Of a DNA stretch of 64,000 bases, positions 12,815 through 52,262 are shown in pieces. The position numbers and the translations under genes were made by a program. Below the pieces are notes generated by a model. It ran no database searches, was not told the DNA's origin, and saw only the letters and a list, made by a program, of their open reading frames with translations. The DNA lies in assembly GCA_051313645.2 (NCBI GenBank), contig JBNRSN020000006.1, positions 40,610,001-40,674,000 on the forward strand. Direction: 5' to 3'. The stretch comes from Centroscyllium fabricii (Eukaryota). Numbering within the stretch: position 1 is the first letter of the stretch; the number at the start of each line of letters is the position of its first letter.

Positions 12815-14240
12815 ATAAAAACAGAAAATGCTGGAAATACTCAGCAGGTCAGGCAGCCTGTGTGAAGAGAGAAACAGAGTTAATGGGGGGTATTTTCATG
12901 TCCCCGTGAGGCGGGGTTTTGGGCAGCCCGGCCGGAAAAATAGCGGAACCAGCGGGTCCCGTCCCCCCCCTCGCCCGCCCAGATTCCCCGCCCCGAAACC
13001 CTCGCGCCGCCGACCGGCGGGGATGGGTTGTTACCTCGTTAAGGGCCCTTAATTGGCATCTCTAATGCCATTTTAAGGGCCCTCAGCCATTTCGCCCTGT
13101 TTTCCGCCCTAACCCCGCCACCTTAAACCCCGCTGGGTGAAACCCAGCGGGAGCACAGCGCTGGTTATAACTTTTGGACTATAACCTGGTGTTGTGTGAC
13201 TTCTTAAATTTATTACTTTCTCCTTTAAGTTGTGAAGGACATGCTGCCAAATGCTTAGCATGCCTCCAGCATTTTACAGGAGTAAGTACCTCCGTTCTGG
13301 CTTCAGCATCAGCTGTGAACAGAAACTGAGCAATCTCAGTTCTCACCATGTCCTCACAGCCGCTGCAAGCTGTGAGGGATTCTGAGCCCGCCCGCCCACC
13401 TGTCAGTCACCAGCACTTGGCCTTCCCCATTGGCTCCACTCTACTGTGATGTCACAGTGGAGTGTTTCCATGGGAACTGACAACAACCAGTGCTGGAACT
13501 GTCAATCAGAGTGCTCGCAGCTCCGCTGCAGCCCGACTCGATTGACCTAATTACCTCCCGCTCCCGCCGACAGGGATTTAACAACCTCATTAAACTAAAA
13601 TTGCGTGGCCTTCCCAGCTGTTTGAGCGGGCGGGACCAGAAGCTGCCCAGACCAATCCCCACCAGGTTCCCGCCCTTCTGCCAAAGGCCCCCCAGTGTTT
13701 CAGGTCAATGGCCCTTCATCAGAACTGGAAAAAGTTGGAGATGCAACAGGTTTTGAAGCAAGTGCAGGGGCAGGGAAAGGGGGGAGGGGAGGAAAGGGCA
13801 AAAAGGAAAGTCTGTGATAGGCTGGAAGGCAGGAGAGATTAAGAGACAAAAGGAATGATGGTGCAAGGCAAAAGGAGATGGTAATGGGACAAGTTAAGAA
13901 ATAAAAGATGACTCTAGATGAAGTGTAAAGGAGAATTGCAGAATCATCAGCAGCTGCCATGTGAAAAAAATAGGGGCCGAGGTTATGGTCTGAAATTATT
14001 GAACTTGATGTTGAGTTCAGAAGGCTGTAAAGTACCTAATCGAAAGATGAGGTGCTGTTCCTCGAGCTTACGTTGAGCTCCGTTGCTGAGAATGGAGAGG
14101 TCAGAGTGGGAGTGGAGCGGAGAATTAAAGTGACAGGTGACCGGAAGCTCGGGGTCACGCTTACGGATTGAATGGAGGTGTTCTGCAAAGCGGTCACCCA
14201 ATCTGCGTTTGGTCTCCCCAATGTAGGGGTTACCCATATC
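12815..14240 (-). mobile_element. Penelope-like element 3' part (GIY-YIG endonuclease C-terminus plus hammerhead-bearing terminal repeat), split by a MITE
   Basis: YIGETKRRLGDRFAEH...HFN...LEEQHLIFRLGTLQPSELN at 13983-14237; minus-strand CTGATGA...GAAAC hammerhead core at 13696-13726. Confidence 0.9.
12885..13693. mobile_element. Harbinger-type MITE
   Basis: GGGGGG...CCCCCC ends, AAT/AGT flanks; removal restores GAGTTAATGTTTCAGG. Shares AAGGGCCCTTAATTGG...CATTTTAAGGGCCC core with the 18479, 23103, 25100 and 38744 elements. Confidence 0.8.
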
Positions 14241-14369
14241 ACCAGGTAAATTAAACTCTCCTTGGCCACTGTCTGTGGCTGAACCAGACTGTTTGCCACT
14301 CTGGAGTCCTAGTTGACTCTGAGAACCTGAGCTGAGCTTCTAACCACATATCCCCTCCCATCACCAAGA

Positions 14370-15015
14370 CTGACTATTTCCACCTCTGTAACATTACCCA
14401 ACGTTGCCCCTGTCTCAGTTCATTTGCTGCTGAAACCCTCATCCGCCTCTTCGTTACCTCCTAGACCTGACTATTCCAATGCTCTCCTGGCTGGCCTCCC
14501 ACCTTGCACCCTGCATAAACTGGCGCTCATCCAAAACTCTGCTGTCCATGTCCTAACTCACGCCAAATCCCGTTAATCAATCACCCCTGTATTCGCTGAC
14601 TTACATTGGCTCCTGGTCTGGCAACGCCGCGATTTTAAAATTCTCATCCTGGCTTTCAAATCCCTCCATGGCATCACCCCTCCCAATCTCTGTAACCACC
14701 TCCAGCCCTACAACCCTCCAAGATACCTGCGCTCCTCCAATTCTGGCCTCTTGCACATCCCCGATTTTAATCACCCCACCATTGGTGGCCGTGCCTTCAG
14801 CTGCCTGGGCCCTAAACTCTGGAATTCCCTCCCTAAACCTCTCCACTTCTCTACCTCTCTCTCATCCTTTAATACGTTCCTTAAAACCTACCTCTTTGAC
14901 CCTCACCTGTCCTAATATCTCCTTATGTGGCTCGGTGTCAAATTTGGTTTGATAATCGCTCCTGTGAAGCACCTTGGGACGTTTCACTATGTTAAAGGCG
15001 CTATATAAATGCAAG
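14370..15015 (+). mobile_element. L2-type LINE 3' fragment
   Basis: Decayed RLDYSNALL/ITPVLADLHWL/FKIL-type coding trace; 3' end AAAGGCGCTATATAAATGCAAG shared with Deu-SINE tails. Confidence 0.8.
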
Positions 15016-15996
15016 ATGATGTTGGTATACTTATGCGAAGCAGGCTAAAGGTTATAAAGATGGCAAACTTGGCATCCTCAATTTGAAGACCAGTTACCTT
15101 ATGGCATGTTTGATTTTAAAGTTTCTTATAAATAATATGTAGATTCTTTTAATTACAGAGAGGGGATTGTATTTTCCACATAACACTTAAGAATAAGGCC
15201 TTTGTAAGACCTGATCCTGGAGATATTCCTTAAATCCTTTTGAAATGCGTGCTGCATCTCAAGGAATCTTACAGAATGAAACAAGCTTTTGTTTAAAGTT
15301 ATATTGATTTCAACCTTTTTTATAATAGAGTTCAATCTTGCTGAACATTACCAAAATGTATAAAAATGCCACTATTTTTAAGAAACCTTGCAGCATTGAG
15401 AAATGTTCTGTTGTCGCACAGATTTTGTAATTATGATATTCAGAGGGCTGCAAAGACAGCATATACAAACACAACAGCAGGATTAAAAAATAATCATCTG
15501 TGGCACTGCTGGAAAGTTAATTAAAACTCAGGCTGCATTCGTACTGTTCACGCCCCAAAAGATTATATCAGAACTTTCCTTGGCAGCAGTTTTCTCTCAG
15601 TGGTTGTTCGCAAGACAACACTTTTGTTTGTGCCGACATTTGAGAATTTTTAGAAAAATGTTGACGGCAAACTGCCCCAAGTGCAATTCTCTAGCCGCCG
15701 TCCGCATTATTATTTGAATGAATATCTGTTTCTTGTTTGTCCTTTTATTTGGATTGAGTAGACGAAATCTCCAAATAGTTACCTCAGAGAATGAAGCATT
15801 TTCAACAGTAAACCTTCAAAGCTAAGAATCTTTTAAGATATCCAAAACAATTTAACACTTGCCTTTTAAATGAACATAAAAAAAGGGAGAGATGGGATGT
15901 CTCCTGTCCGATTGCAGTCCCCTTGACATTGCTACAGCACATCATGCCACCTTTGCTGCTACAGTGTGCAGAACTCCCATTATGAAATTCAGTAAT

Positions 15997-16859
15997 GGGC
16001 CAGAAATTCGGGTGCCTGGGACGAGCTGCACCCGCACGGAGGGGGGCCAATATGCCCCGTGCGATCATCGCACGAGGCATGCTCATGGATCGGAGCTTTC
16101 CGATGCTGAGGGAGAAGAGGCCTCAGCATGAAATGCACAAAAGAATTGCACCCAAAAATCCCGATATTTTTTGGGTGTGATTCTGTGCGTGAATCTGTGG
16201 GCAACTGGGCCTGGGGCTGCACGAGAAAATAGGAGTCGTAACCTGTGCGTTGGTGAGAGCAGTGCATTCCTAAACACAGGTAATTGACTTTTTTACCTTT
16301 AATCTTAAGTTTTTTACGTTTTTTGGAGTAATGTGGCCAGATCGCTATCATTAAATTTTGCTGTTAAAGTTTTTTTTTTAATTTTAAAAATCCAAATTTC
16401 AACTGCTATACCTATTCCAAATCGCTTATTTTTAAATTTAAAGTTCAGAAATTTTTAACTCTTTCCTTAATTTAAAAAACTAAGAGAAAAAATCGCTAAG
16501 ACTTACCGACATTGAAAAGCTGCTCTGGCCGCGGTGCTCACTGCCGAGTTTGTGGGTGCAGCAGTGGGCGTGGTCCTAATAACGGCCTCACGTCCCTGCT
16601 CTCTCAGAAGTCCGACTGTGAAGCAGAGGGCGTTTTTTATTTAAATTAGGGATCTGTGGGCGGGGCATCACTGCTACACATGCACGACGGCAGCGCATAT
16701 ACTGCGCTCCTAGCGTGGCTGGACTGCCACGCAGCGCAGGAACGGGGCAGAGCCAAGAGGAAGGTCTGGACGTAAAAAATGTGAGATGATGTTGCGGTGC
16801 TATAGGTGTCCGCAGGGTCCTTGCACCCGCACAAACCGGCACACTGGAATTTCTGGCCC
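15997..16859. mobile_element. MITE with GGGCCAGAAATTC terminal inverted repeats
   Basis: Perfect 13-bp TIR; colinear with 48136-49541. Confidence 0.88.
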
Positions 16860-17119
16860 ATTATCTGTATGGTACTACTTTTGCCCATAAGACTGCAAAA
16901 TTTTTGTATTTGTAGTGTAACATTGCTAATTGCCCAGTTAATAGACTATCTCATGGTAACATGGCTCAGTGGGCAGCACTCTGTAGGTGGGAGGGGCTAG
17001 GAGTGAGCAGGTGCTACTGGGTGCTTGATTGCTGCAGGGAGTCAGAGTGAGTTTGTAAAAAGTTGCTGGTGTTTGTTTTTCAGGTTTTAGGGCCCTTTTG
17101 GTCCTTAAACAGCAGCCAG

Positions 17120-18478
17120 ATGGCTGTTGAGGTGCCCAGATTGCCGGGTACCTCAGAGGACCATGTTCCCAAGATGAATGTAATCAGGGGATAAAACGTT
17201 GGGGGAAGGAAGAAAAAAAGGCCCAAAGATTTGGGCCGGGACCCCAGGAGGTTGGGAAAAGAAAACACGGTGGTGGTTCAGTGCGAGGATAAGGAGGTAC
17301 AAGCTTGGGATATTATCCAAGCGGAACATGAGGACTGCGGTGAGCAAAGCTGCTTTGCCTATCGACCAAAGCTGAATGTTTGGTTCGAGGTGACGGTCAT
17401 TGGCCGAGAGAGGGTGGAAAGACTTTTACTGAACTTGAAGGTTGGAAGTAAGTCCTTGGAAGTAACGCTGCTATATTCTGAAGAGGTGGTGGTCTCATTC
17501 TTAAACCTGCCGCTTTATATTGAGGACGATGTGCTAAATAAAAAAGTTGGAGTTGTGGGACATTAAAGTTTGCTCGGCAATAAAGAGGAGATACTATCCA
17601 GGAACATGGGTAGTAGATGGAACCCATTATGTAAAGGTGCGGTTCCCAGAGGGGGTGAAATCATCGCTCTATAGCATGAAATTTGAGACAATGGAAAGAG
17701 TGCAGTACTTCTGGGTACTGCATGATAACCAGGTGAAGGTTTGTTATTATTGTCTTGGACATGACCATCTTGTAAGAAGCTGTCCTGTCTTGTACTGTTA
17801 TAACTGCAGTGAGTCTGGACACATCGCGCGGAGCTGCAAGGCGGAGAGCTGCGGGGTGTGTCACAAAGGCCCCACCCGCTGTGAGTGTGCGGCAGGAGAA
17901 AGCCCCTTGAGTGACGAGGAGATGGGAGAAGGAGCAGGAGCAGGAGGCGTGAGTGGAGCAGCTGGAGGAGCGGAGCAGGCGGAGGACGCAGCTGATGAAT
18001 GGAAGGAGAAAAGAGCACAGGAAGAGGCAGAGAAGAGAACAGGATGGAAATGGTGGAAAACACACCAAGTATGGTGGAAAAGGACAAAGACAGCAGCGGG
18101 CAGCATGGGGCGAGGGCAAAGTCAAGCCATAATGTGGCTCGGCTCTTCCTAAAGAATCTGGTGTCCGCGGGGGGAGAGGAGGCGGGAGTGGGGTGCGGGG
18201 TAAGTGTAAGTACTCCAAAGAAAGACAGGGAGTCAGACATCTCGGGGAGCAAGAGGGGACAAGACAAGGAGAGGGTGCAAGAGGCGGGAGCCTTAAAGGG
18301 GCAGCAGGGTGCGAGCGGGGAGGCAAAGATGACAGAAGAGAGCAAGATATGTGCAGATGCACCATTGTCCCAGAGAGAGATATAACGGGGAGCAAGGGTC
18401 AGTGGTGGAGATGAGGCCAAAGGGACAGGCACTATTGGAGAAACCGTGACAGTAGGAAGACTATCTAAGGGAGATTTA
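17120..18478 (+). pseudogene. Tx1-clade ORF1 (gag-like CCHC zinc-knuckle protein), frameshifted
   Basis: VVVSFLNLPLYIEDD...IKRRYYPGT..DGTHYVKVRFP...HDNQVKVCYYCLGHDHLVRSC..CYNCSESGHIARSC, then an acidic low-complexity tail. Confidence 0.85.
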
Positions 18479-19769
18479 GGGGTCAATTTTCCTGGAGCCG
18501 ACAGACAGCTTCTTTGGCGGCCGGGGAGGCAAAATCGCGGAAACGGGGGATCGCGACCCCTCCTGCCGGTTTCCCAGCAGCTTGTGAGTTTCAGCCTGGC
18601 AGGTCCAATCGAACCACTTCAGTCCTGCCTGCCACCGGCGGGGATGGTCGTTCAGCTCATTAGAGACCCTTAATTGGTATGTATAATGCCATTTTAAGGG
18701 CCCCTTACAATTTTCAGCTTTTTCCCACACAAAACCCACCAGCTGGAAACCCCGCTGATGAAACCTGGTGGGGACACTAGTGAATTCCTGACTATCATTC
18801 AAGCAGCTGCAGCAGAAGCCATCCCTGGGCTCCAGCCTGCATCGGGACTAACTGTATCCCTAGGGTGCACAAGATCAGTGGGATAAAAGCTGTCACAAAC
18901 TCACCTTGTGGCTGCTTTGACTGATAGCACGTAAGTTCTCAATGAAATGGCTCTGCTGGAGCAGGCAGCCAGTGAATGACATGGTGGCGCAGTGGTTAGC
19001 ACTTCTGCCTCACAATAAGGAGCTCCTGGGTTCGAATCCTGCTTGGCCCAGGACCTCTCTGTGTGGAGTTTGCATGTTCTCCCTGTGTTTGTGTGGGTTT
19101 CCTCCGGGTACTCCAGTTTCCTCCCACCACCCAAAGACATGCAGGTTAGGTGAATTGGAGATACTAAAAAAAGAATTGCCCATGAGTATGTGTGTGAGAT
19201 ATAGTTCTTAGAGTTGGGGGTGTCGGGGGATATGGGGAGAGGGTAGGAGAGGGGTGCTGGGTTTGGATGATCAGCCATGATCTCATCAAAATGGTGGAGC
19301 AGGATCGACGGGCCGAATGGCCTACTCCTGCTCCTATCTTCTGTGTTTCTGTATTTCTGTGAAACAGACAGCAGCTGTCACTCAATCTCTATGGTTTACA
19401 AGCAGCCATTGTGATGTCATACACCTTTTTGACAATCCATTGAAACAGGCAGCAGCTGTCACTCAATCTCTGTGGTTTACAAGTAGCCATTGTGATGTCA
19501 TATACCTCTTTGACAATCCATTGAAACAGACAGCAGCTGTCACTCAATCTCTGTGGTTTAGTAGGCTAACGGCTCTGCTCCTTAAACAGCCAAAACCCGC
19601 CGGCTTTCTGTCTGGAAACAGTCCTGAGGCAAGGCTTCCCACATGTGGGGATTTAATTGGCCAATTAAGCCAAAATTGCATGGAGCTTCCAGACCCTTTA
19701 GAAAGCGGGAAGAAAACGTGACCCACGGGAAACCCATCAATTCCCCACACCTTGAGGAAAGTTGACCCC
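18479..19769. mobile_element. Harbinger-type MITE with an internal ~81-bp tandem repeat and a nested SINE
   Basis: GGGGTCAATTTTCC / GGAAAGTTGACCCC TIR; paralog at 1-523. Confidence 0.85.
18977..19358 (+). mobile_element. V-SINE (HE1-like: tRNA head, V domain, CR1 tail)
   Basis: A box GGTGGCGCAGTGGTTAGC, B box GGTTCGAATCC, V domain TGTGTGGAGTTTGCATGTTCTCCC, CR1-type tail; GTGAA flanking repeat; empty site near 200 in the paralogous MITE. Confidence 0.9.
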
Positions 19770-20171
19770 TATGTATCTGACAGAGAGCAGGGACATGACA
19801 TTACAAAAGAACTCAGGGAGTGAGGAGTCAGAGAGGGACAGAGACATGGTAGTGGGGGTAGAGCAGCATCGTGTGGAAAGGGAACGGTTAGTGAGGGGCA
19901 GGAGGTGGGAGAAGGGAAGGGCCGGAGATTAAATGATGGGGGGATTATCAGGCACACTTTCCTTATATGGAGCCATGATTACTGATCAATTTTTAAAGTA
20001 TGATAGATTAGTATATGTTATGGGAGACAAATTAAACTCCAGGTTTTGATGTTAATATGTAGTGGAGGAATGGCTGTGCAGAGTGACGGAATGGATTTGT
20101 ATGATACAATGGATGACCACGATGTTGCAAATGTTTTTAATGTTTAATAAAAAAAAATTTTTAAAGCTGTT

Positions 20172-20600
20172 AGCACTCAGGCCTCTGAGTCAATAGGTTG
20201 TGGGTTCAAGCTCCATTCCAGAGACTTGAGTACAAAAATCTAGGCTGGCATTCCAGTGCAGTACTGAGGGAGTGCTGCACTGTCGGAGGCGCTATCTTTC
20301 AGATGTGAACTTAAACCAAGGCCCTGTCTGCTCCCTCAGGTGGACGTAAAAGATCTCATGACACTATTTTGAAGAACAGCAGAGGAGTTCTCCCCGGTGA
20401 CCTGGCCAATATTTATCCTTCAACCAACATCAGTTAAAAATCTGGTCATTATCACATTGCTGTTTATGGGACCTTGTTGTGCCCAATTTGGCTGGCACAT
20501 TCCCTACATTAGAGCAGTGACTACACTCCAAAAATGTACTTCATTGGCTGTAAAGCATTTTGGGATGTCCTGAAAGGTGCTATATAAATGCAAGTTTGTT
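20172..20600 (+). mobile_element. Deu-domain SINE (head begins at ~16958)
   Basis: tRNA-like B box GGTTCAAG, Deu core GGGACCTTGTTGTGCCCAATTTGGCTG, L2-type tail. Confidence 0.8.
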
Positions 20601-21344
20601 ATTTCTTTCTTTAACAGCATGTTTGCCTAATCCTGTGTGCCAACATACAGGACCACGTTTTCTTTTTTACAGCAATATCTGAATGCTGCATTTGCACAAA
20701 TGGCCTCCTGACTGTTTTCTAAGATTCAGATGTGACATTTCATTATCGTGATCATATTACTGTACAGCTACAAATGTACTTTTAATTTAGCTTATAGCAG
20801 ATATATTTCACACTTGAGGTAGAACAAAATCATACAGGCACACAGCAGACGCATACTTAATAGAAGGAAACATTACAAGTTTACTAAAGATTTATATGTG
20901 AGCTTTTTTTTTCATTTTTTCCATCAGGGCTGTTAAACCAACCAGTAAGTTGTGTTTTTCCTCAGTACATTTATCTGAAGAATACTTACAGTAAAATGGT
21001 TCTATAATTACTGATCAGTGGTCCTACACCAACCAGTCATTCTTTTATACATAAAGAACGTACTATAAATGGATTCATATCTGCACTGAATGCTTAAAAT
21101 ATATTTTTACAATGACCCATCAATCTTACAAAAAAATCTTGTTTTCCATATTTGTTTTTCTAGATTGTTCTTGTCTTTCTTTTCTCCTCTTCCCCTCCTG
21201 CCAGGCTGCTCCTTAAAATATGAAAAAATCTCGAACATTTCTCACAACATTAATATCATTGTCACTCCCTGGGGTGATTAGATGGAAGAATCTGACACCA
21301 GGAGTCCATTCAGAGTCTCGTGCCCAAGTTTCAAGAGTTCAACA

Positions 21345-21790
21345 ACAACAACTTGCATTTAAGTAGCACCCTTAACACAGTAAAACATCCCAAGGTGCTT
21401 CACAGGAACGGTTATCAAGCAAAATTTGACACGGAGCCCCATGAAGAGATATTAGGACAGGTTATCCAGGCCTTGGTCAAAGAGGTAGATTTGAAGGGGT
21501 GTTGTAAAGGAAAAGAGAGAGGTAAAGAGGTGGAGAGGTTTAGGGAGGGAATTCCAGATCTTAGGACCTCGGCGGCTGAAGGCACGGCCGCCAATGGAGG
21601 AGCGAACAAAATCTGGGATGCTCAAGAGGACAGAATTGGAAGAGCGCATAGATCTGGAAGGGTTGTTGGGCTGAAGGAGGTTACAGAGTTAGGGAGGAGT
21701 GAGGTCAGGGAGGGATTTGAAGACGAGGATGAGAATTTTTTAAATCAAGGCATTGCCGGACCGGGAACCAATGTAGGCCAGCGACATTGG
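21345..21790 (-). mobile_element. L2-type LINE 3' fragment
   Basis: Reverse-complement paralog of 14600-15015; GGRAFS...PKIWNSLP motif. Confidence 0.8.
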
Positions 21791-22248
21791 ATTTGGGGGA
21801 TTAAAGGGGAAGAAAAGTAAGTGCAATAACTATATTGACAGGCTACACAGTTTGGTCAGACTTGTTTACTGTATAACTGGAATGCAAACAATTTATTGGC
21901 GTGTTTAAATTATGACTTGTCCAAGCAGTATTCCATAGTTTTATTGACAGGAGATATACTGGCTGATGTAATAATGGAGTCTGATACATCAATAACTTAA
22001 ATGAAAGCCTTAATCCACTACATTATCACTATGTACAAAGACGGGTTTTACCATGCTTCCAGGTGAAGCGTTCACCCCATACTGAGCAGTTCCAGTATTT
22101 ATACTAACAAAACAGGAAGTGACATGTACAGAGTTCACCCCATAGCCTTCCCCCGGAAGTCTGTTCAATATTACCACACTGGCTATGGATAATAAGAATG
22201 AATTTACACATTTTCTTGAAATAGGAGAAGTAACAATTTAAATGAGAA

Positions 22249-22770
22249 CTGTTATGTATGATGTGTATGTATGTGTTATCCTCCCACCTGCGGTGGCGCT
22301 GCTGCAGCACTGCGCAGCCATGAGGTTCTTTTACTTTTTAGTTTCAGTTTCTCTTTTAACTGTTGATTAAACTAGACAGATTTTGACATCTCAGTAGTTT
22401 GAATTCTCTTTGTGTTTAAGTAGAAAGTCTTTGATACAATAAGTGGTGACGAGGATGGGATGGTTTGGATGAAGGAAATGGCCAGAAGCTACTTCTGGTG
22501 GCCAGGCCTCGATGGAAACATTGAGGAGAAAGCAAAAACATATTCCTCCCCCCTTAAATAAAATGTCCCATTATTACTTATTGTATGTAAGTCTTTCTAC
22601 TTAAACACAAAGAGAATTCAAACTACCGAGCTGTAAAAAGCTGTCCAGTTTAATCAACAGTTAAAAGAAAAACAGAAACTAAAAAGTAAAAGAACCTCAT
22701 GGCTGTGCAGTGCTGTAGCAGCGCCACCACAGGTGGGAGGATAACACATACATACACATCATACATAACA
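22249..22770. mobile_element. Foldback element of two inverted Gypsy-type LTRs with PBS, integrase scrap and PPT
   Basis: ~195-bp inverted arms starting TGTTATGTATG; AGAAC TSD on both sides; TGGTGACGAGGATGGGAT PBS; MKEMARSYFWWPGLDGNIEEKAK integrase zinc-binding-domain motif. Confidence 0.85.
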
Positions 22771-23102
22771 AGAACATATTACTATTATTCCACAACATCC
22801 CTCGTACTACAAGGTAAAGTTATGTCCCAAAGATTGGGTGTTAATGAGGGTTGTATTGAAGGGAATATTGCATGGGATTTTTTGCAGAAACGGGTGCAGT
22901 TTTACATTGGCTGCAGTGTGTGTAAGAGTGGGGATGGGTTATTACTATGTGCAACTAATGAATCTATTTGTATGCCTTGTGAGCATAATTTGGCAGATAG
23001 TGTAACTTGGCTGTGGTAAGCCCCATTGAGTCAGTGGACTATACATCATAGTTTGTAACACAAAATGTACCCAGTGTTCTAGCCAATGAGTGGAAAAACT
23101 GA

Positions 23103-23554
23103 GGCGTCAATTTTCCCATAGGTGCGGGGAATTGGCGGGTTTCGGGCAGGTCAGGTTTCAGACCCGAATGTTAAAGGGCCTGGGAGCCCCACGCAATTTT
23201 GGCTCAATTGGTCAATTAATTCCCCGCGTGTGGGAACCCCTGCCAATTGACTGATTTAAGACAGAAAACCGTCGGGGTTTCAGGCTGGTGGGTTAAGGGC
23301 GGGAAACGCTTCAAAATCACAGGGGGGGGCCCTTAAAATGGCATTATACGTGCCAACTAAGGGTACTTAATGTGCCTTATGACCATCCCCGCCGGCCACC
23401 AGCAGGAAAGATTCGGGGCGGCTAGACACGGCGGCGGGAAATCACAAAGCGGCGGGGATCCGGCGGGGGGGCCAGGACCCCCCCCCCCGGTTTTGGTATT
23501 TTGCGGCCATCCCTGCCGAAAAGCCCGCCTGATGGCTCACTAAAAATTGACGCC
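23103..23554. mobile_element. Harbinger-type MITE
   Basis: GGCGTCAATTTT / AAAATTGACGCC TIR with a perfect TGA TSD. Confidence 0.88.
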
Positions 23555-24004
23555 TGAGAGTTTAAAAAGTGTAAAAGTGTATATTATAATATATATTTTT
23601 TTTTATTATTTCTCATTTTCTCTCTCAGGGTTGTCCTGCATCATGTACCATTTGACCAGCAAGCTGCCAGTTTCCAGGACATTTCTCACCACTCTGTGAT
23701 GACTCACTAGAAGGTACACAAGAGCAGCTTGGGTCGACTGTCTATAGGATTTTCTGTCCTTTCTTGCGAATAGCTGTTTAGCCTCCACTTGGGGCTTCCC
23801 CACCCACAAACCAATGACCCTACCGAGATGGTGAACTGACAGTGTGTGGAGCGTGGGGAGCGAATTTGTGACACTGTGACGGGTACACGGGCGCATTGTG
23901 CAACCGCATTGCTTTCCGTTTCTTTTGAGTTGCGGGCCAACCCAGTCCCAAAACAATTAAAACTGGGTGCATTTGAACCTTTACAAATTAACTCTGGTAT
24001 TGTT

Positions 24005-24400
24005 CTCCTTGCAGCAGAGAAGGTTAATGGGAAATTTAATGGAAGTGTTCAAAATTTTATGGGATTTTGATAGATTAAATAAGGGGAAACAGTATCCGCT
24101 GGCAGGAGGATTGGTAACCAGAGGACACTGTCATTGTCATTGTCAAAAAAGCCAGAGGGTAGATGAGGAGATTTTTTTTTACGCTGCGAGTTGTTGTGAC
24201 CTAGAATTCAGTGCCTGAAAAGGTGGAGGAAGCAGATTCAACAGTTACTTTTAAAAGGGAATTGGATAAATACTTGAAGGAGAACAATTTGCAGGTCTAT
24301 GGGGAAAGAGCGGGGGAGTGGGACTAACTGGAAAGCTCTTTCAAAGAGCCAGCACAGGCACGGTGGGCCGAATGGCCTCCTTCTGTGCTGTAAGATTCTA
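24005..24400 (+). mobile_element. Old CR1 3' fragment
   Basis: TRGH motif trace and 3' UTR GGGCCGAATGGCCTCCTTCTGTGCTGTAAGATTCTA. Confidence 0.8.
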
Positions 24401-24401
24401 T

Positions 24402-26204
24402 GTGGGGAAAATTCAGTTGGTTGCGCCTCCCGTTAGTGCCTTAAGAGGGCGCTAATGGGGGCGCAACGCAACTAGCGCCCAGGCGCGGCGAGTTTAGCGC
24501 TGCTCGGGAAATTGACTAGGCATTTTGCGGCGGCGCTAAGCACTACCACCACGGTCTCCTGCGCCAGCAGATTGTGACATCATTCGAGTGCGCAACACCC
24601 TGGTAGCGCCCCGGACCGGATATTGAGTGGCGCCCCCTGCCTTGCCGCCTGCCGCTAGCAACGACAGATTGAGGGGAGCATTTTGCAGTCAGAAAGGGAC
24701 TGGGGGAGCGCTATTTAAAGTTGACTGCTTCCTGACTTTTTTTGTTGGTGATATTTTTGCACCACACATTCTGAGAGAGGGTCTTCTGGAGAGATTCAAC
24801 ACTGTGTGAAGGAGGTTTGGGTACTGAGCAGCACTTTGCAGGTTCATTTTGATTTTCCCTTCCTAGTATCGATTTAGAAGAGAATGTGGGGGCTGCACTC
24901 TCAGCTCTTTCCCTGGATCTCGCCATTGTTCTTCCCAGCAAATTTGATGTACCTGTCTCTCCAGGCCGAGGTTCAAGGCTGCAATGAGCAGGATGTGGAC
25001 GAAGAGCAAGATCAACCCGCCCCTTTAAGATAAAAACAGAAAATGCAGGAGAAACTCAGCAGGTCAAGCAGCATCTGTGAGGAGAGAAACAGAGTTAACG
25101 GTGGGGATTTTCCCGAAGTTGCAGCGATTTGGTGGGTTTTGGTCAGGTCGGGTTTCTGGCCCGCCCGCCCAAGGGCCTGGGAACCCCACGCAAATTTGGC
25201 TTAAGTAGCCAATTAATTCCCGCGTGCGGGGAGCCGCTTCCAATTGTTTGAATCAAGTCGGAAAGCAACGGGCTGAAGCTGGGAGCCAGAGCTTTGATGG
25301 ACAGTTCTAGGGACTGTCTGTTGTCAGTTTCCATGGAAACAGTCCACTGTGACATCACAGTGGAGTGCAACCAATCGCAAAGCCCAAATGTGTTGAGTGA
25401 CAAGTGTAAGGACGTGCTGGAAATCTTTCAGAGTTAGGGGCCATCTCTCAATCCAGCATTTCATCATCAGTCAAGGTGAGTCTTTTCAGTGTTTTCTCCA
25501 CAGATGGTCATCAGAAAAGGGAGTCACTTACACCTCCAGGGTGTTGAAGGCCTGGAAAGCAATCTGCTCTAGGTTCTTCAATGCCTTGAAGGTGAAAGTG
25601 GCCTAGCCGACTGTGATCCCGCTAGCGGGGTTTCAGGATGGCGGGGAATGGGTGGGAAGGCCTTTAAAATCGCGAGGGGCCCTTAAAATGGGGTTACCCA
25701 TGGCAATTAAGGGCCCCTAATTACCTCAACGATCTAACCGCCGGTGGCGGGCGAGAAAGAATCGGGGTGGGAAAACAGGCCAGCGGGAAAGTGCAAATCG
25801 GCAGGGATCCAGCGGGGGTGGGGGTCGTGATTCCCCCCCCCCCGGTTTCGCGATTTTAGACCCACCAGAAACCCACCCTCACGGACCCGGGAAAATTCCT
25901 CCCAACGTTTCAGGTCGATGACCATTTGTCAGAACTCTCCTTTAAGAATTGGACGGTGCCAGTGTGTCTGTGTTCCATTGCTGACTGACATCACATGAGC
26001 TTTGCCAGCGCTCTGAGGTAACGCCTCGCTCCTTGGCCATTGCGCCTTAACAGTGGTGTGGAGCGCCCGATTTAGCGCTCAAATCACCTCCAGGGGCGAG
26101 AAAAGCCAAATTTGCAATTGGAGACGATAATTAGCGGCAGGCGCTAAACTTAGTGCATCACCCAGAATGGCGGCCCAAACGGGGCGATACTGAATTTTTC
26201 CCCC
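24402..26204. mobile_element. Harbinger deletion-derivative MITE carrying a Penelope terminal fragment and a nested MITE
   Basis: GGGGAAAATTCAG / CTGAATTTTTCCCCC TIR; colinear with 29640-30629 and 50497-51768. Confidence 0.88.
25100..25903. mobile_element. Nested Harbinger-type MITE
   Basis: GGTGGGGATTTTCCCG / CGGGAAAATTCCTCCC TIR, AAC TSD; empty site visible at 30337-30352. Confidence 0.9.
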
Positions 26205-28750: not shown

Positions 28751-29639
28751 ATTTTGGTGCCGTGTCATTTGCTTCCTGTGGGAATGGGTCAGATCGCTCA
28801 ACGTGACTTGAGAAAAATGAGTCACTTACATAAATAGTGTATTCAGAAGATTTGTTTGTGCCTGTTTCATCTAACATCAGAAAAGGCAGTTAATACAAGT
28901 AATTACTGAAGCGATCGTGTTGCACGCACTCTATTTTACACAAGATGCACAAACGTTTTTTCTTACGTTAATCATGTTAACTGAAGTGTAAATTGAAGAG
29001 TGAAAGTCAATAAAATCAGGAAGAATCATCAAATAATGGAGACCTCATTATTCAGACCATGCCACATATCAAGCATGCTTTCATCTAATATGTAGTAACC
29101 CTGAACCCGCTCCCACCTTCCCCCAACCCCAACCCCTGCAATCGTAAAGCTCTGCTGTAGCGCTGTTTTTGTTACTAAGCCTTGGCTTAAGTTTTTTCAT
29201 GTTACCTTTAAACCTATGTTATGAGATAGTCATTCAAGTAACAGGTAGCAAGTACAGGTACTTCATTATATCAAACATACAATGCATGTCTGCCCAGAAT
29301 CACATGATAATGAGGTTGAAGTGCATACAGTAGATAAACTTCATAAGACAGCGATTAATGTGAAAATTGTGTCCCATTGTAATTTAAGTACTCTGTATGA
29401 TTTGAGTGATAATCAATATTATCTGATTTTAACAGCAATGTGATAATGACCTGCTAATGGTTTTTAAGTGATGTTAGTTGAGCGATAAATATTGGCCAGG
29501 GCTCTGGGGAAAGCTCCCTAGCTCTTCTTCGAAATAGTGCCATGGGACCTTTTATGTGCACCTCAGTTTAATGTCTCATCCGAAATAAGGCACCTCCTGC
29601 GAAGGAATAAGCCATATAACCTATTCAGAAAAATACACT

Positions 29640-30629
29640 GGGGAAAAAAATCGGTTGGTTGCGCCATCCATTGGCAACCTAGGAGGGAGCTAATGGAGGC
29701 GCAAAGCAAGTAGCGCCTGGGCACGGCAAGTTTAGCGCCACTCGGCAAATTGACTAGGTACTTGGCGGGGGCGTTAAACATTAGCGCCATGATCTCCTGC
29801 GCCGGCAGATTGTGACATCATTCGAGTGCGCAATGCCCCGGTAGCACCCCAGACCAGATATTGAGTGGTGCCCCCTGCCTTACCGCCTGCTGCTAACAAT
29901 GATAGGTTGAGGAGAGCGTTCTGCAGTCAGAAAGGGACTGGGGGAGCGCTATTTAAAGGTGACTGCTTCCTGCCTTTTTTTGCTGGTGACATTTTTGCAC
30001 CACACATCCTGAGAGAATGAGAGAGAGATTCTGGAGAGATGCAACGCTGTGTGAAGGAGTTTTGGGTACTGAGCAGCACTTTGCAGGTTCATTTTAATTT
30101 GACCGTCCTTGTATGGATTTAGAAGAGAATGTGGGGGCTGCACTCTCAGCTCTTTCCCTGGGTCTCTCCATTGTTCTTCCCAGCAGATTTGATGTACCTG
30201 TCTCTCCAGACCGAGATTCAAGACTACAATGAGCAGGATTTGGATGGAGAGCAAGATCAACCCTCCCCTTTAAGATAAAAACAGAAAATGCAGGAGAAAC
30301 TCAGCAGGTCAAGCAGCATCTGTGAAGAGAGAAACAGAGTTAACGTTTCAGGTTGATGACTATCCATCAGAACTTTCCTTTAAGAATTGTGTCTGTGTTC
30401 CATTGCTGACTGACATCATATGAGCTTTGCCAGCGCTCTGAGGTAACGCCTCGCTCCTCGGCCTTTGCGCCTTAAGAGAGGTGTGTGGTGCCTGATTTAG
30501 CGCTCCAATCACCTCCAGGTGCGATAAAAGCCAAGTTTGCAGCTGGAGGCGATAATTAGCACCAGTTGCTAAATTTAGCACTGCGCTGAGTATAGCGCCC
30601 CAAATGGGGCGATACCGAATTTTTCACCC
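29640..30629. mobile_element. Harbinger-derived MITE nested in the LTR
   Basis: GGGGAAAAAAATCGG / CCGAATTTTTCACCC TIR with ACT TSD. Confidence 0.9.
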
Positions 30630-33384: not shown

Positions 33385-33593
33385 CATGATGTGGAGGTGC
33401 CGGTGTTGGACTGGGGTGGACAAATGCAAGAAGTCACACAAACACCAGATTATAGTCCAACAGTTTTATTTTAAATCACAAGCTTTCGGAGCTTTTGCCC
33501 CTTTTTTCACCTGACGAAGGGGCAAAAGCTCCGAAAGCTTGTGATTTAAAATAAAACTGTTGGACTATAATCTGGTGTTTGTGTGACTTCTTG
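33385..33593 (+). mobile_element. Short Penelope-type insertion forming a perfect hairpin
   Basis: 13-bp TSD CAAGAATGGTGTT (33372-33384 / 33594-33606); inverted arms 33425-33503 and 33517-33595. Confidence 0.88.
33506..33545 (+). ncRNA. Minimal type I hammerhead ribozyme motif
   Basis: Stem I TCAC/GTGA, core CTGACGA, stem II GGGGC-AAAA-GCTCC, GAAA, palindromic AAGCTT stem III region, UH = UU; matches the Penelope-associated minimal hammerhead architecture. Confidence 0.8.
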
Positions 33594-34650
33594 CAAGAAT
33601 GGTGTTGACAGATCCTTCAGCTGCCCTGAAGAAGGGCCTCTGTGGGTAAATAGTTCTGCTTTTTTGAGACCCTCCACCCACAGAAAACCCTTACAATTAT
33701 CATTTTAAAATATTTTAAGTAAAGCTACGTTTATTTTTAGCCCCATAAAAAACTTCAATTATTTTTTTCAAAAAATTAAATTTTTGTTTAAAATACTTAA
33801 ATTAGTGTAATTTCAAGTCATTTTAAAAATGTGTTTTTTTTTATTTATTTAAAGTTTCACTATGTTTTTTCATTGATCGCCACTCATATATTTGACAGGT
33901 TTTCCTGTCAAATGTATGAAGGGAGATTCCCTTCTGTGATTGGCTAACCATGGCCTATGTGATCACAGGGAGGCTGCGAACTACCTGCGCCCCTGGGATA
34001 CGTGGGCCCTGCGCACTTCAAGTTTGTTGAGGCGCAGGTGTGAAAGCGTGTGCATCCCAGGAGCCCTCAGGTAAGGGCGCAGATTTTTCCAGATCGCAGG
34101 CCTCCACCCGAGGGAGGCCTGCGATCAGAAAATACGGGCAAATATGTGAATTGCTGTTGATTACTCTGTCTCTTGTGTTGGGTCTGTTAGTCGTAGCTGT
34201 CCCCTTCCACTAAACTCCATGCAGGAACTATTGCAAATAACCTTTCAAACACAACAATCTTTTGCATTGGTGTTCCAAACATGCAAAAATAAATAAATAA
34301 TGTGAAAGGAAGAATGCCTCTGCAGTATACTTATGAGAATAAGCCCCGCCATTAAGGTAACAGTTAACTAAGTCAAAAGCTCCACTGTATGTGCCAGCCC
34401 ACATGATCAAAGGGTGCCCCTTTCCATTGCCAGAAGCATAAGTTATTGCAGGGTATTAACAATGAAGGTATGACAAGGAGCAGTGGTGTCCGGAATGTAC
34501 ACTGCTGAGTGACAGCAGACCAAATCATCCTTGAGCCCTGCAGGCATGCTTGAACGCTCAGGTACGTCACAAGAGGAGCATTTCTTCCATATGCTGCTTA
34601 TTGTATGCTATCTTTCTGTTCATACCAGACAGTGGTGATGTGCTGTTGAA

Positions 34651-37478
34651 GTGAGACAGGATGGTACACAACTCACACGGAGTGAGACACAATTGATGCA
34701 CACCTCACATGGAGTGAGACACAATTGGTGCACACCTCACACGGAGTGAGACACGATTGGTGCACACCTCACACGGAGTGAGACACGATTGGTGCTCACT
34801 TCACATGGAGTGAGACACAATTGGTGCACACCTCACACGGAGTGAGACACAATTGGTGCACACTTCACGGAGTGAGACACGATTGGTGCTCACTTCACAT
34901 GGAGTGAGACACGATTGGTGCACACTTCACACGGAGTGAGACATGATTGGTGCTCACTTCACACGGAGTGAGACACGAATAGTGCTCACTTCACACGGAG
35001 TGAGACACGATTGGTGCACACTTCACACGGAGTGAGACACGATTGGTGCACACTTCACACGGAGTGAGACATGATTGGTGCTCACTTCACACAGAGTGAG
35101 ACACGATTGGTGCTCACTTCACACAGTGAGACACGATTGGTGCTCACTTCACACGGAGTGAGACACGATTGGTGCACACTTCACACGGAGTGAGACACGA
35201 TTGGTGCTCACTTCACACAGAGTGAGTCCCGATTGCTGCACACTTCACACGGAGTGAGACACGATTGGTGCTCACTTCACACGGAGTGAGACATGATTGG
35301 TGCACACTTCACACAGAGTGAGACACGAATAGTGCTCACTTCACACGGAGTGAGACACAATTGGTGCACACTTCACACGGAGTGAGACACGATTGGTGCA
35401 CACTTCACACGGAGTGAGACACAATTGGTGCTCACTTCACACGGAGTGAGACACGATTGGTGCACACTTCACACGGAGTGAGACACGATTGGTGCTCACT
35501 TCACACAGAGTGAGACACGATTGGTGCTCACTTCACACAGTGAGACACAATTGGTGCACACTTCACACAGAGTGAGACACGATTGGTGCTCACTTCACAC
35601 AGTGAGACACAATTGATGCACACTTCACACAGAGTGAGACACGATTGGTGCTCACTTCACACAGAGTGAGACATGATTGGTGCACACTTCACATGCTGTA
35701 GTGAGACACGATTGCTGCGCACTTTACATGGAGTGAGACACGATTGGTGCACAATTCGCACAGAGTGAGACAAGATTGGTGCACATTTTACACAGATTGA
35801 GACACGATTGGTGCACACTTCACACGGAGTGAGACACGATTGGTGCACACTTCACACGGAGTGAGACATGATTGGTGCACACTTCACATGGAGCGAGACA
35901 CGATTGGTGCTCACTTCACACAGAGTGAGTCCCGATTGGTGCACAATTCGCACAGAGTGAGACAAGATTGGTGCTCACTTCACACGGAGTGAGACACGAT
36001 TGGTGCATATTTTACACAGATTGAGACACGATTGGTGCACACTTCACACGGAGTGAGACCCGATTGGTGCTCACTTCACACGGAGTGAGACACGATTGGT
36101 GCACACTTCACACGGAGTGAGACACGATTGGTGCACACTTCACACGGAGTGAGACACGATTGGTGCACACTTCACACGGAGTGAGACACGATTGGTGCTC
36201 ACTTCACATGGAGTGAGACACGATTGGTGCTCACTTCACACAGAGTGAGTCCCGATTGGTGCACACTTCACACGGAGTGAGACACGATTGGTGCTCACTT
36301 CACACGGAGTGAGACATGATTGGTTCACACTTCACACGGAGTGAGACACGAATAGTGCTCACTTCACACGGAGTGAGACACGATTGGTGCACACTTCACA
36401 CGGAGTGAGACACGAATAGTGCTCACTTCACACGGAGTGAGACACGATTGGTGCACACTTCACACGGAGTGAGACACGAATAGTGCTCACTTCACATGGA
36501 GTGAGACACGATTGGTGCACACTTCACACGGAGTGAGACACGATTGGTGCACAATTCACACGGAGTGAGACACGATTGGTGCTCACTTCACACAGAGTGA
36601 GACATGATTGGTGCACACTTCACACGGAGTGAGACATGATTGGTGCTCACTTCACACAGAGTGAGACACGATTGGTGCTCACTTCACACGGAGTGAGACA
36701 CGATTGGTGCACACTTCACATGGAGTGAGACACGATTGGTGCTCACTTCACACAGAGTGAGACACGATTGGTGCACACTTCACACGGAGTGAGACACGAT
36801 TGGTGCACACTTCACACGGAGTGAGACACGATTGGTGCTCACTTCACACGGAGTGAGACACGATTGGTGCTCACTTCACACAGTGAGACACAATTGGTGC
36901 TCACTTCACACAGAGTGAGACACAATTGGTGCTCACTTCACACAGAGTGAGACACAATTGGTGCACAATTCACACAGAGTGAGACAAGATTGGTGCATAT
37001 TTTACACAGATTGAGACACGATTGGTGCACACTTCACATGGAGTGAGACACGATTGGTGCACACTTCACACAGAGTGAGTCCCGATTGGTGCACAATTCG
37101 CACAGAGTGAGACAAGATTGGTGCATATTTTACACAGATTGAGACACGATTGGTGCACACTTCACACGGAGTGAGACACGATTGGTGCACACTTCACACA
37201 GAGTGAGACATGATTGGTGCACAATTCGCACAGAGTGAGACAAGATTGGTGCATATTTTACACAGATTGAGACACGATTGGTGCACACTTCACACGGAGT
37301 GAGACACGATTGGTGCACACCTCACACGGAGTGAGACACGACTGGTGCACAATTCACACGGAGTGAGACACGATTGGTGCTCACTTCGCACAGAGTGAGA
37401 CACGATTGGTGCTCACTTCACACGGAGTGAGACACGATTGGTGCATATTTTACACAGATTGAGACACGATTGGTGCAC
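34651..37478. repeat. Tandem satellite, 32-bp unit, about 88 copies
   Basis: Consensus CACACGGAGTGAGACACGATTGGTGC(A/T)CACTT repeated head to tail over ~2.83 kb. Confidence 0.98.
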
Positions 37479-38145
37479 TCTGGAATGCACTGCCTGAAAG
37501 GGGCTGTGAAAGCAGATTCAATAGTAATATTCAAAAGCGAATTACAGGTTGAACACCATTATAACGGCACGGGCGGGACTAGGCCCAGGCCGGTATAGCA
37601 AAAAAACGGAAGAACAAAGCCGGCCAGTGCGCGCACCATTAAAAATGGCCGCGCGCATGCTCATAACATTGGAAATGGCTGCCGCGAAGTTTTGATTGAT
37701 CTGCGCCTGCACCGCTGAACAGCGAGCGCATGCGCAGATCATTCAAAAATGGCCACCAAAAGTTTGGAATGGTCTGCGCATGCGCTCGCCATTCGGCAGC
37801 GCATACGCAGATCATTCAAAACTTCCGGCGGCCATTGTGAATGATCTGCGCATGCGCTCACCATTCAGCGGCGCATGGGCAGATCATTCGCCGAAGCATT
37901 GATCGTGGTGGCCATTTTGCACATGCGCAGGGCAGTCGGGGCGATTTATGCCGGCCAACTGAAGTTGCCGGCTTTCCGGTTACCGGATAAACGGTGTTCA
38001 ACCTGTATATAAATTCTTGAAAAGTAAATACTTGCAGGTCTTTGAGGAAAGAGCAGGGGAGTGGGACCAATTGGATAGCTCTTTTTAAGAGCTGGCACAT
38101 GCTCGATGGGCCAAATGGCTTCCTTGTGTGAAAGATTCTATGATT
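37479..38145 (+). mobile_element. CR1 3' fragment split by a Tigger-like MITE
   Basis: WNALP trace and 3' UTR on either side of 37545-38005; similar to 24210-24400. Confidence 0.75.
37545..38005. mobile_element. pogo/Tigger-like MITE
   Basis: TA|CAGGTTGAACACC...GGTGTTCAACCTG|TA. Confidence 0.9.
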
Positions 38146-38743
38146 CACAAATGTGCTATCGTGCACAGCCCTGTATCAGATTAAAAATTACAACTTTTTC
38201 TTTCGAAAATATAAGTTTCTGAGAAAACTATGCTGATACAGAAAATATATATAAACACACAGGAAATGCACAGCAGGCTCGACAGTATTTCAAATGAGGA
38301 AGCGAGGCTAACTTTGAATGAAGCTTCATATGATAACTTATGTTTGAATCTTTCAGATGCATACCAACCTGCTGTGAATTTTGATTATTTCCTGCTTTTA
38401 TTTCAGATTTGCACCCATTCTTTCTATTGCTAACATGTTGGTTTATATCTATCTCTATATTTGATTTTTTTTTTTTAATAATGTAATACCAGCATTTCCC
38501 TTTGTTCCTACAAAAACCCGGTTTAGTATTTTTCTTTAAAGCAATCTGGTAAACTAAAATACTGCAGCTTCCCCTTTCAAATTGTGTACACTCATCTAGG
38601 GGCGTGGAGTCGGGATCCTGGATTATTTGTGAACAGGAAATCCTGAAAGATAATTTCATGGTCTAACTAGTAAGAGTTCGGAAAAAACGCAAAATGTGCA
38701 ATAATAATGGAAGGGCAAATATTACCAGGGCCACTGAGCTATG

Positions 38744-39645
38744 GGGTGGAATTTTAGGAGGTCCCTAAGTGCGGGTTTCTGGCGGGTTGGTTTCTAAAAT
38801 TCCAATCCGGCGGGCGGGAAGGCACCCCGCTGGATCCCCGCCCATTTGGGATTTTCGTCGGGCGGGTTTTGCCGCCCCGCATGTTTCCCGCCCGCCGCCG
38901 GTGGGGATACAGATTGAGGTCGTTGAGGGCCCTTAATTGGATGGCTAATCCTATTTTAAGGGCCCTCAGCTATTTTAGCCCTCTTCCCACCCAAAACCCG
39001 CCTGGTGAAAACCCCGCCATGAAAAAGGTGGTGGGAACCCAGGCGGCTGGGTGTCTACCACCTTCAAGGGATGGGCACAGCACCCACACAGCAGCTTGCT
39101 AGCCTCCACCATGCTGGAGGTGCAGCTGCCACCCAAGGGTGAGAAACTTCAGAGCCCAAAACCTTGAAATCATTCATCTTCAAATCGCTCCTATTCAACA
39201 GAGATCGCACTGCTGTGCTGTGTCTGTGAGCTCAGCTGTCAATCACCCAGGGGATCAGTTTCTGTTTACATTCCATTGAAATCACAAACAAACATGACTC
39301 ACTACAACTGTTTGTTTCGTGGTTTCAAGTGGTCCTTTCATAGTCTGACTCACAGAGGCTATGTAAACATAGAAACAAAGGCAACACTTCAGATCTGTCA
39401 ATCAAGCTTAGTGAGTTCTTACTACTCAGGCCTGTCAATCAACAGCCCGCCCAACTCAAACAGTGAATGTAAAGGGCTATGTTCACCCCCATTAGTGTGT
39501 ATTGGGAGCCTGACAGTTCGGCGGGGATGTAATTGGTCACTTGAGCCAAAATTGCTCGGGCCTACCAGATCCTTGGGCGGGCAGGACAGAAAACTGACCC
39601 GCCCAAAACCCGCCAGCTTCCCACAGCTTTTTAAAAACTCCCCCC
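38744..39645. mobile_element. Harbinger-type MITE
   Basis: GGGTGGAATTTT / AAAACTCCCCCC ends, ATG TSD; empty site at 42038-42040 in the local duplicate. Confidence 0.88.
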
Positions 39646-41930: not shown

Positions 41931-42121
41931 GATTTCATAGTCTACTTTTATTTTAAAAGTGGCCCATTGAGAGTTAGGAAAAAACACAACAAGTGCAATA
42001 ATAATGGAAGGACAAATATAACAAGGGCCACTGTGTTATGGTGACTAAATAATTCAAATTCCATTTTATTATGTGACTTCCCAAGAGTTTTACTAGTGAT
42101 TTGGGGATCATATCCCACAAT

Positions 42122-49835: not shown

Positions 49836-50496
49836 TGTTTTTCTTTCTCTGTTAGAAACTCTGGACAAGCCACTGCATCGCAAAGGCTCAATGTCAGCAG
49901 AGATAAGAGCACCCACTGTGTGCAGCAACGGTAACCGAACATGCAGCTAAAGCAAGCAGAAATGAATGCATCTTACTCACGTCAGTAGAATTCATTGTAA
50001 CGGAGGAATTAGAAGCGATTGGGTTTCTGGTCTGTTTTATAAACTATCTTTTTAATCTTTTCTCGCTTTACTTCATGTACTACAGGTACTATTATTAGGC
50101 TATGAGTCTCTGTATCAGAATGGTCGTGTTGCTAGCACTGGAACACTGTGGCAAATGAGGCTTCAGAGGATTTGCACAAGACCTCTGTCTATAAGTGCAT
50201 TAACCCCATTAAATGAGTGCGTTAGGAGGGGAAAACGCTAAACTGCGCACATGAAAAATGACAGTGCTTTTTTTATTCTCTTGGAGTTTATGACATCATT
50301 TTGAATCCTTCCATCACAGAGTGGCCTTTTAATCACTCCCAGGTGACCATTCTAAAGCAGACTGTGGACCTTCACCCAGTACAGACACTAACATGGTCAC
50401 AAATGGTGTCAAAAAAGGAGTGTCATACTTTTTTGCGAGGATTATTCAGCTGTCGTTTCCGTCACAGAACAGGAATGGTTTTAGAAGAAAAGCCAT

Positions 50497-51768: not shown

Positions 51769-52262
51769 ACAGTCTTTCCGATCTTTAATTACAGCTGCTT
51801 TGAGTCAATGAATTAAAATGGTTTGTTTTCTTAATCCTTATTAACATTTATGTGCGACAATCTAGATAGCTGCACTAAAACACACACAGGAATTCTCCGA
51901 AAGAAAATGCTTAAAATTAATCAGTGGCATCAATTTTGATTTTACCATGTGCATGTGGTAGCTAAGAAAAGTAATGGATACAGCACCAGGAGGCAGGTAT
52001 AATAACTGTAATGTAATCACTGGATTAACTTGCCATTAATAATTGCAAGGATGCCTTTCATGTTGTGCAAGCCAGTTACACTAGACATCTTTCTGTTTTT
52101 CACACAACTATCTGCGATGTAGCATGGGACAATTTCTACGTTAAAGGCCTCTATAAATGTAAATTTATTATTGTTGCTGCTGCATCAATGCTAAATAGTT
52201 TCAGTTCCGAATCAGCACAAATAAAGTGTGATTGAAATAAGTGTAGTCTATTATTACCCCTT

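Follow-up and report, generated by a model that had tools for sequence, protein, structure and literature searches.

A Harbinger-type insertion hotspot at the cleavage triplet of a Penelope hammerhead motif in Centroscyllium fabricii: probably a coincidental match to a general target preference

What could bring two separate DNA transposons to the same nucleotide of another mobile element? The question is posed by a stretch of 64,000 nucleotides from Centroscyllium fabricii (contig JBNRSN020000006.1, positions 40,610,001 to 40,674,000; hereafter, the window) in which two miniature transposable elements with inverted repeats at their ends (MITEs), here MITE1 and MITE2, each interrupt a copy of a Penelope-like terminal repeat at the GUU cleavage triplet of a putative hammerhead ribozyme. 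The window is only one instance of the phenomenon because, genome-wide, this triplet is an insertion hotspot far beyond chance, entered independently by many subfamilies of such elements. The explanation that we favor, and to which we assign a probability of roughly 0.68, is that many Harbinger/PHIS-type MITE subfamilies sit at the triplet owing to coincidence, the hammerhead DNA being a near-best match to the general sequence preference of the transposase. The elements and hosts from which the question arises are the following.

12815..12884, minus strand: Penelope-like terminal repeat, the part 3' of the hammerhead triplet in the RNA sense, including the left duplication AAT at 12882-12884
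12885..13693, no strand assigned: MITE1, a non-autonomous Harbinger/PHIS-type element
13694..13726, minus strand: right duplication AGT and the 5' half of the hammerhead beside MITE1, read directly
25030..25099, minus strand: left part of the Penelope terminal-repeat fragment that hosts MITE2, including the left duplication AAC at 25097-25099
25100..25903, no strand assigned: MITE2, a non-autonomous Harbinger/PHIS-type element in the orientation opposite to MITE1
25904..25936, minus strand: right duplication AAC and the 5' half of the hammerhead beside MITE2, core mutated (CUGACAA), read directly
30275..30374, minus strand: uninterrupted terminal-repeat fragment, triplet at 30342-30344, core mutated (CUGAUGG)

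MITE1 and MITE2 align on opposite strands at 72-74% identity (over 279 and 100 bp), which bears out the first-pass annotation of the window: the two are related but diverged, and they point in opposite directions. MITE2 ends in the terminal inverted repeats (TIRs) GGTGGGGATTTTCCCG and GGGAGGAATTTTCCCG and is flanked by a perfect AAC/AAC duplication; that of MITE1 is imperfect (AAT/AGT). On direct reading, TAA is a poorer fit than AAC as the duplication of both elements. The left host piece of MITE1 (12815..12884) is 91% alike over 69 bp to 30275-30343, and the piece on its right (13694..13726) comprises the 5' strand of stem I, an intact CUGAUGA core, stem II with one mismatch, and GAAAC. The site at 30337-30352, previously annotated as uninterrupted, is a true paralogue of the MITE2 host because both ride in copies of one larger TIR element.

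24403..26204, no strand assigned: larger TIR element carrying a Penelope fragment and MITE2
29639..30629, no strand assigned: paralogous larger TIR element with the uninterrupted Penelope fragment

These two copies are 87% and 82% alike, their outer flanks are unrelated, and the same 9-bp duplication, CCTTTAAGA, brackets the Penelope piece (about 110 bp) in both; thus, a DNA transposon has moved the hammerhead. The uninterrupted fragment also contains two secondary sites, AGA at 30336 and ACA at 30334. Besides these two, the larger TIR family has copies at 50495-51776, without the Penelope-fragment region, and at 57311-57734, and more distant relatives of the MITE clade occupy non-hammerhead sites at 38743-39645 (with an empty paralogue near 41970-42121), 18479-19770, 23100-23500 and 200-527.

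Is the interrupted sequence a hammerhead? On the minus strand, the terminal repeat has the layout previously claimed for it, which by its sequence is that of a minimal type I hammerhead: stem I AGUU/AACU, a CUGANGA core, an extra A, a 5-bp stem II, GAAA, and C-G-U-U, the duplicated 3 bp being the GUU triplet. The implied integrity of the motif did not hold up, since the core is intact in only one of the three window copies. Pairing was assessed in 37 of the 55 uninterrupted copies found, the 18 with a badly decayed core being left out: 91% of the cells of stem II and 73% of those of stem I are paired, compared with 13-40% for slid controls. Covariation in these 37 copies does not rise above shuffles, a scan against Rfam gave no hammerhead match, and single-strand folding of four stretches (z from -0.6 to 0.8) did not yield the hammerhead fold. 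The repeat often occurs in head-to-head inverted pairs (L007, L133, L184-L186). A second hammerhead family shares the core and has other stems; two of its arms (UCAC/GUGA stem I, GAAAG-CUU) make up a 171-bp palindrome (95%) at 33425-33595 of the window. The assignment of the host to Penelope draws on the following feature.

13986..14228, minus strand: GIY-YIG-like C-terminal part of a putative Penelope-type endonuclease (YIGET...RKLEEQHLIFRLG) in the MITE1 host, truncated near 14230

This piece has no Pfam match, a longer paralogue gives a weak GIY-YIG match (E = 0.047, below the cut-off), and in decayed paralogues reverse transcriptase (RT)-like motifs, themselves without a Pfam match, lie upstream of the GIY-YIG-like part in the expected order. 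Judging from the accessible part of the account of metazoan Penelope-like minimal type I hammerheads (PMC4209133), the likeness extends to the CUGANGA core, the extra base after position 9, the short stem I, the absence of loop III, the palindromic 15.2-16.2, the position beside a putative RT/GIY-YIG frame, and the occurrence mostly as single dispersed copies. The differences are that pair 10.1-11.1 is A-U or G-U here and usually G-C there, and that approximately one-sixth of the present copies are split at the triplet by a DNA transposon, of which that part of the account makes no mention.

How often, then, does such splitting occur? We searched the genome (7.2 Gb, 1,598 contigs); the listed places that are classified by hand below come first on contigs C1 and C2 and do not constitute a random sample. 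A pattern consisting of a 13-base anchor, 0-30 free bases and a 12-base end of the MITE clade matched 886 times, and the reversed pattern did not match at all. Among the first 100 of the 886 listed, 85 insertions are at the GTT/AAC triplet, 8 at AGA and 7 elsewhere. Insertions of this clade alone occupy 3.0% of anchored sites, compared with 6.0e-6 for an average position, an approximately 5,000-fold enrichment and the outcome expected by the first-pass annotation. The complementary count, of hammerhead copies interrupted at this base, points the same way: among the first 100 listed of 23,398 anchor matches (about 10 of which either belong to something other than this hammerhead or carry no information), the triplet holds an insertion in 16-17, AGA in 3 and ACA in 1 when all families are considered, and the fillers include further end types besides those of the clade. 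Duplications were confirmed for four of these (L190 and L196 at the triplet, L188 at AGA, L198 at ACA); the far ends of the other fillers were not found. In 400 kb of unselected stretches, two of seven assessable hammerhead copies are filled, which suggests some 10^5 copies of the repeat and, as a rough figure, 20,000 insertions at the triplet. Some copies also appear to carry two MITEs six bases apart, at AGA and at the triplet (for instance, G000:C1378:2166904 and C789:13904809). Contigs with loose ends resembling MITE termini at the same base came from sequencing runs labelled organism A (5 and 7) and organism D (6); none was among the matches listed for runs labelled B, C, E and F, listings that stop short of a further 230 and 159 matches.

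What kind of element is involved, and did the copies arrive separately? A decayed autonomous relative, denoted L179, begins at the very same base.

G000:C1:130938500-130948400: L179, decayed autonomous Harbinger-type element

Its transposase frame matches DDE_Tnp_4 (E = 3.5e-34), and a second frame, 6 kb away and linked to the transposase by position only, matches Myb_DNA-bind_5 (E = 8e-7); nested LINE-type RT pieces lie between the two genes, and the far end of the element was not found within 30 kb. The left end of MITE1 is 91% identical to the end of L179 over 44 bp and 81% over 163 bp. Together with TIRs that start with G, a 3-bp duplication and the paralogous empty site in the window, these features place the MITE clade in the PHIS superfamily and bear out the Harbinger-type assignment made from the window. 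PHIS elements (PMC2836001, PMC4482050) likewise combine a DDE_Tnp_4 and a Myb/SANT protein, TIRs starting with G, a 3-bp duplication, Tourist-like MITEs and a preference reaching about 7 bp beyond the duplication. Within the superfamily, the duplication is ANT in Pangu, CWG in NuwaI and TNA between C and G (C-TNA-G) in NuwaII (PMC4482050); the duplication of the present clade, in contrast, is not fixed as TWA, ANT or CWG, and the strict TWA of PIF/Harbinger is represented only by TAA/TTA in 7 of the 106 half-sites described below. A second difference is that here the preference falls on the core of a ribozyme whose repeat is present in about 10^5 copies, which results in a single-base hotspot. 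The ends inserted at the triplet fall into 8/10 end-type clusters plus singletons, in both orientations and from several families, and reach at most 95% identity among themselves, similar to their identity with copies elsewhere. Thus, the insertions at the triplet were made independently by many subfamilies and do not represent a clonal composite, in agreement with the interpretation of the two window elements.

Does the clade recognize the hammerhead as such? Extended target preferences are known for PIF/Harbinger, over 9 bp in plants and 15 bp in vertebrates (PMC2836001). The preference of the present clade was derived from 106 half-sites, those that remained of 141 once 11 in the hammerhead were set aside together with 24 in which the last duplication base is G and cannot be told from the TIR; before that, a family filter had dropped one more hammerhead end (L163). 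The resulting matrix favors C at -1, A at -2, A at -4, a purine at -5 and C at -7, so that each side reads roughly c-w-R-A-n-A-C around a variable, AT-rich duplication (AAT/ATT in 18 and ATA/TAT in 20 of the 106). Within the hammerhead repeat, the triplet scores 8.2 bits, AGA 5.3, ACA 4.6 and all other positions at most 2.5, the same rank order as that observed in the genome; the ratio of triplet to AGA is predicted to be 7.5 and is observed to be 10.6. Beside MITE ends outside the hammerhead, hand classification shows an approximately 37-fold enrichment of CTGAAAC and only an approximately 2.7-fold enrichment of CAGAGTT; hence, one excellent half-site does most of the work. This CTGAAAC half-site, in which the end of stem II runs into the invariant GAAA and then C15.2, together with the purine-A at -5/-4 on the opposite side, matches the general preference of the clade. 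The proposal that the palindromic core is the recognized feature is not supported; the site, read directly, is not palindromic about the center of the duplication, and it is the half-site that agrees with the preference. A young short interspersed element (SINE) also bears on position: 14 of 23 insertions in it lie on the base predicted by the matrix. The other nine share a second site (AAT) and a single MITE end type; they may stem from the amplification of a single composite or reflect sequence that happens to continue that of the SINE.

Our proposal can be put as a chain of events. The hammerhead DNA, with CTGAAAC followed directly by the triplet and then by AACTCTG, would be a coincidental near-best match to the extended target preference. 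In a minimal hammerhead that lacks loop III, GAAA and C15.2 abut the triplet, which would bring the half-site and the 3-bp duplication into register, and the staggered cut on the antisense strand opposite the scissile bond would be a by-product of this spacing. Penelope retrotransposition would have supplied some 10^5 such sites, and CpG decay from AAC to AAT would have improved part of them as targets. The hotspot works like one of the motif-match kind multiplied by a repeat. For the P element (PMC2577343), hotspots are likewise the best matches to a general palindromic motif with a staggered cut and are entered in both orientations; the present one differs in being multiplied by a repeat and in being measured on old, decayed insertions.

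The state of the targets speaks to the last step. Of 70 filled loci examined, both ends were found in 39, where the duplication pairs are AAT/AAT in 12, AAC/AAC in 8, mixed in 4 and other in 15. A mixture fit suggests that about 48% of the targets were already AAT at the time of insertion (p = 0.0009 against decay afterwards). The AAT form has a higher matrix score than AAC and breaks the C15.2-G16.2 pair. An insertion is predicted to remove the 3' strand of stem I and thereby to disable the copy, mostly a decayed one; this would be of little consequence because the hosts are mostly short, decayed fragments.

Can sequence preference account for the size of the excess? Two LINE-like repeats (long interspersed elements) that contain CTGAAAC and no ribozyme (L265-L274 and L275-L284) are hotspots for the same MITE clade as well, with about 13 of 3,304 and about 11 of 2,202 copies filled (0.39% and 0.52%, that is, 650- and 860-fold over the average), as extrapolated from 8 and 7 listed matches, 100 of 163 being listed. 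Their matrix scores are 7.4 and 6.7 bits, and their pairwise identity is 88-93%, compared with 87-90% for the hammerhead repeat. Since these non-ribozyme controls also exceed their matrix values, the matrix under-predicts generally, as is to be expected when flanks have decayed and younger DNA fills out the genome. Once the higher score of the triplet, above all in its AAT form, is allowed for, the gap to the controls is about 2-fold. The SINE (9.6 bits, 14 of 332,374 copies filled) was rejected as a control of the fill rate: with copies 94-96% alike (those of the hammerhead repeat are 87-90% alike), it mostly postdates the MITEs, and it was therefore used for position only. In the second hammerhead family (GAAAG-CUU, 3.0-4.6 bits), none of 22 copies is interrupted (p of about 0.02 against 17%).

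Several considerations weigh against our explanation. The matrix alone predicts about 200-fold for the triplet compared with the 5,000-fold observed, and this gap closes only after calibration on the two controls, which were chosen because they recur, so that their rates are biased upward. The triplet is filled 6-8 times more often than these controls (16-17 per 100 for all families, compared with 1-2 and 0-1 per 100 listed), and a residual excess of 2-8 fold is left unexplained, a value that may in truth be larger because of the way the controls were picked. The GAAAG family and the SINE look younger and are thus weak controls, and the preference was measured for one clade, whereas several families with different ends share the triplet. 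Furthermore, a strong preference for AAT should tend to deplete the empty AATG copies, yet these are not depleted relative to AACA (4,759 vs 4,127 in genome counts); a depletion of empty AATG, or saturation, hinted at by the first 100 listed rows disappeared with the exact counts. The residual could stem from a slightly greater age of the repeat, error in the matrix, the presence 9 bp away of another GAAAC half-site, or chromatin that is open.

The last two sources lead to an alternative that we consider unlikely, namely, that sequence preference is combined with a regional boost that produces most of the excess, the repeat being unusually easy to reach or to bend, whether through germline chromatin that is open as at a promoter, through fold-back pairs, or through the pseudo-palindrome GAAAC-N9-GTTTC with its two best half-sites. 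Such a boost would fit with the AGA site also exceeding its matrix value (about 470-fold observed against about 28 predicted), with the three insertions per first 100 listed at low-scoring positions such as AGT, with the apparent presence of two MITEs (AGA and triplet) in 4-5 of 19 rows listed, and with the frequent head-to-head pairing of the repeat. The two controls without a ribozyme, however, exceed their matrix values too (about 5-12 fold), so that much of the gap is general, and neither host in the window is part of a fold-back pair.

Could the transposases instead have been tuned to the GAAAC-triplet core, possibly aided by its structure, as a harmless and continually renewed landing pad, with about 20,000 ribozymes split as a result? 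We regard this as doubtful, and the stricter form suggested from the window, in which the transposases evolved to recognize the hammerhead core as a dedicated safe haven, unchangeable and renewed by Penelope, as improbable. In favor of the latter, this one base accounts for some 6-9% of all clade ends. The ends number 68,110 genome-wide when one filter position is used (2,221 in the control), and 6 of the first 100 listed are at the triplet; so are 2 of 29 nearest relatives, the non-self loci examined out of 40 listed in a search with MITE2, which also returned one at AGA six bases away and listed 39 full-length genomic relatives at 88-91% identity. Moreover, across 147 sampled ends no other flank recurs strongly, several families share the triplet, and MITE-like loose ends occupy the same base in the runs labelled A and D. 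Nevertheless, 94 of the first 100 listed clade ends are at other sites, preference goes to AAT, a mutated variant, the left half-site fits poorly (2.7-fold), and the GAAAG family is spared. A comparison with Dada and Pokey (PMC3706591) is instructive: these elements, too, insert repeatedly at one position of a multicopy sequence encoding a structured RNA, and Pokey, like the present clade, also inserts elsewhere; Dada, by contrast, is strictly specific and targets host genes (small RNA genes). With more than 90% of its insertions elsewhere, another transposon as the target and mutated targets preferred, the MITE clade is not a Dada-like specialist.

The possibility that a few MITE-in-Penelope composites were amplified, by retrotransposition or within larger MITEs, is largely refuted: a Penelope fragment was indeed copied inside the larger TIR element in the window, and one group of four copies is 94-95% alike, but the insertions come from at least eight end-type clusters and several unrelated families, in both orientations and with different lengths, and the nearest neighbors are often copies at other sites, which reach 94% as well. 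Least credible of all is selection for insertions that silence the ribozyme or the retroelement, since, although separation of stem I would be expected to abolish function, an intact core is no commoner in filled copies than in empty ones (13 of 39 vs 4 of 17, p = 0.54), about half of the targets had a mutated triplet beforehand, neither of which supports the preferential retention once considered, selection on thousands of mostly short and decayed copies is implausible, and, according to PMC11167929, an anole Penelope-like element inserted in vitro without the need for hammerhead cleavage.

Elsewhere in the window, positions 34647-37481 hold a 2.8-kb tandem array with a period of 32/64 bp and about 90% identity. 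With regard to precedents, we found no published report of DNA transposons at hammerhead triplets in a search that covered listings and the openings of abstracts, and outside of which lay most subscription journals, Repbase reports and supplements.

What does the hotspot imply? Nesting between two classes of transposons is concentrated here on a single base and on an unusual scale; the hotspot is common to several families and was seen in runs that carry the labels of at least two organisms. It amounts to a natural experiment with thousands of replicate targets on how PHIS transposases read DNA outside the duplication and on how CpG decay affects that reading. Counts of hammerheads in such genomes would miss a large class of split copies, and the families of ribozymes that are affected can be predicted: those with GAAAC should be, and those with GAAAG should not. 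Were the transposases tuned to the core after all, this would be the first example of systematic insertion by one class of transposons into the catalytic RNA of another, and the residual excess, if it reflects a real adaptation, would represent a new route to target specificity.

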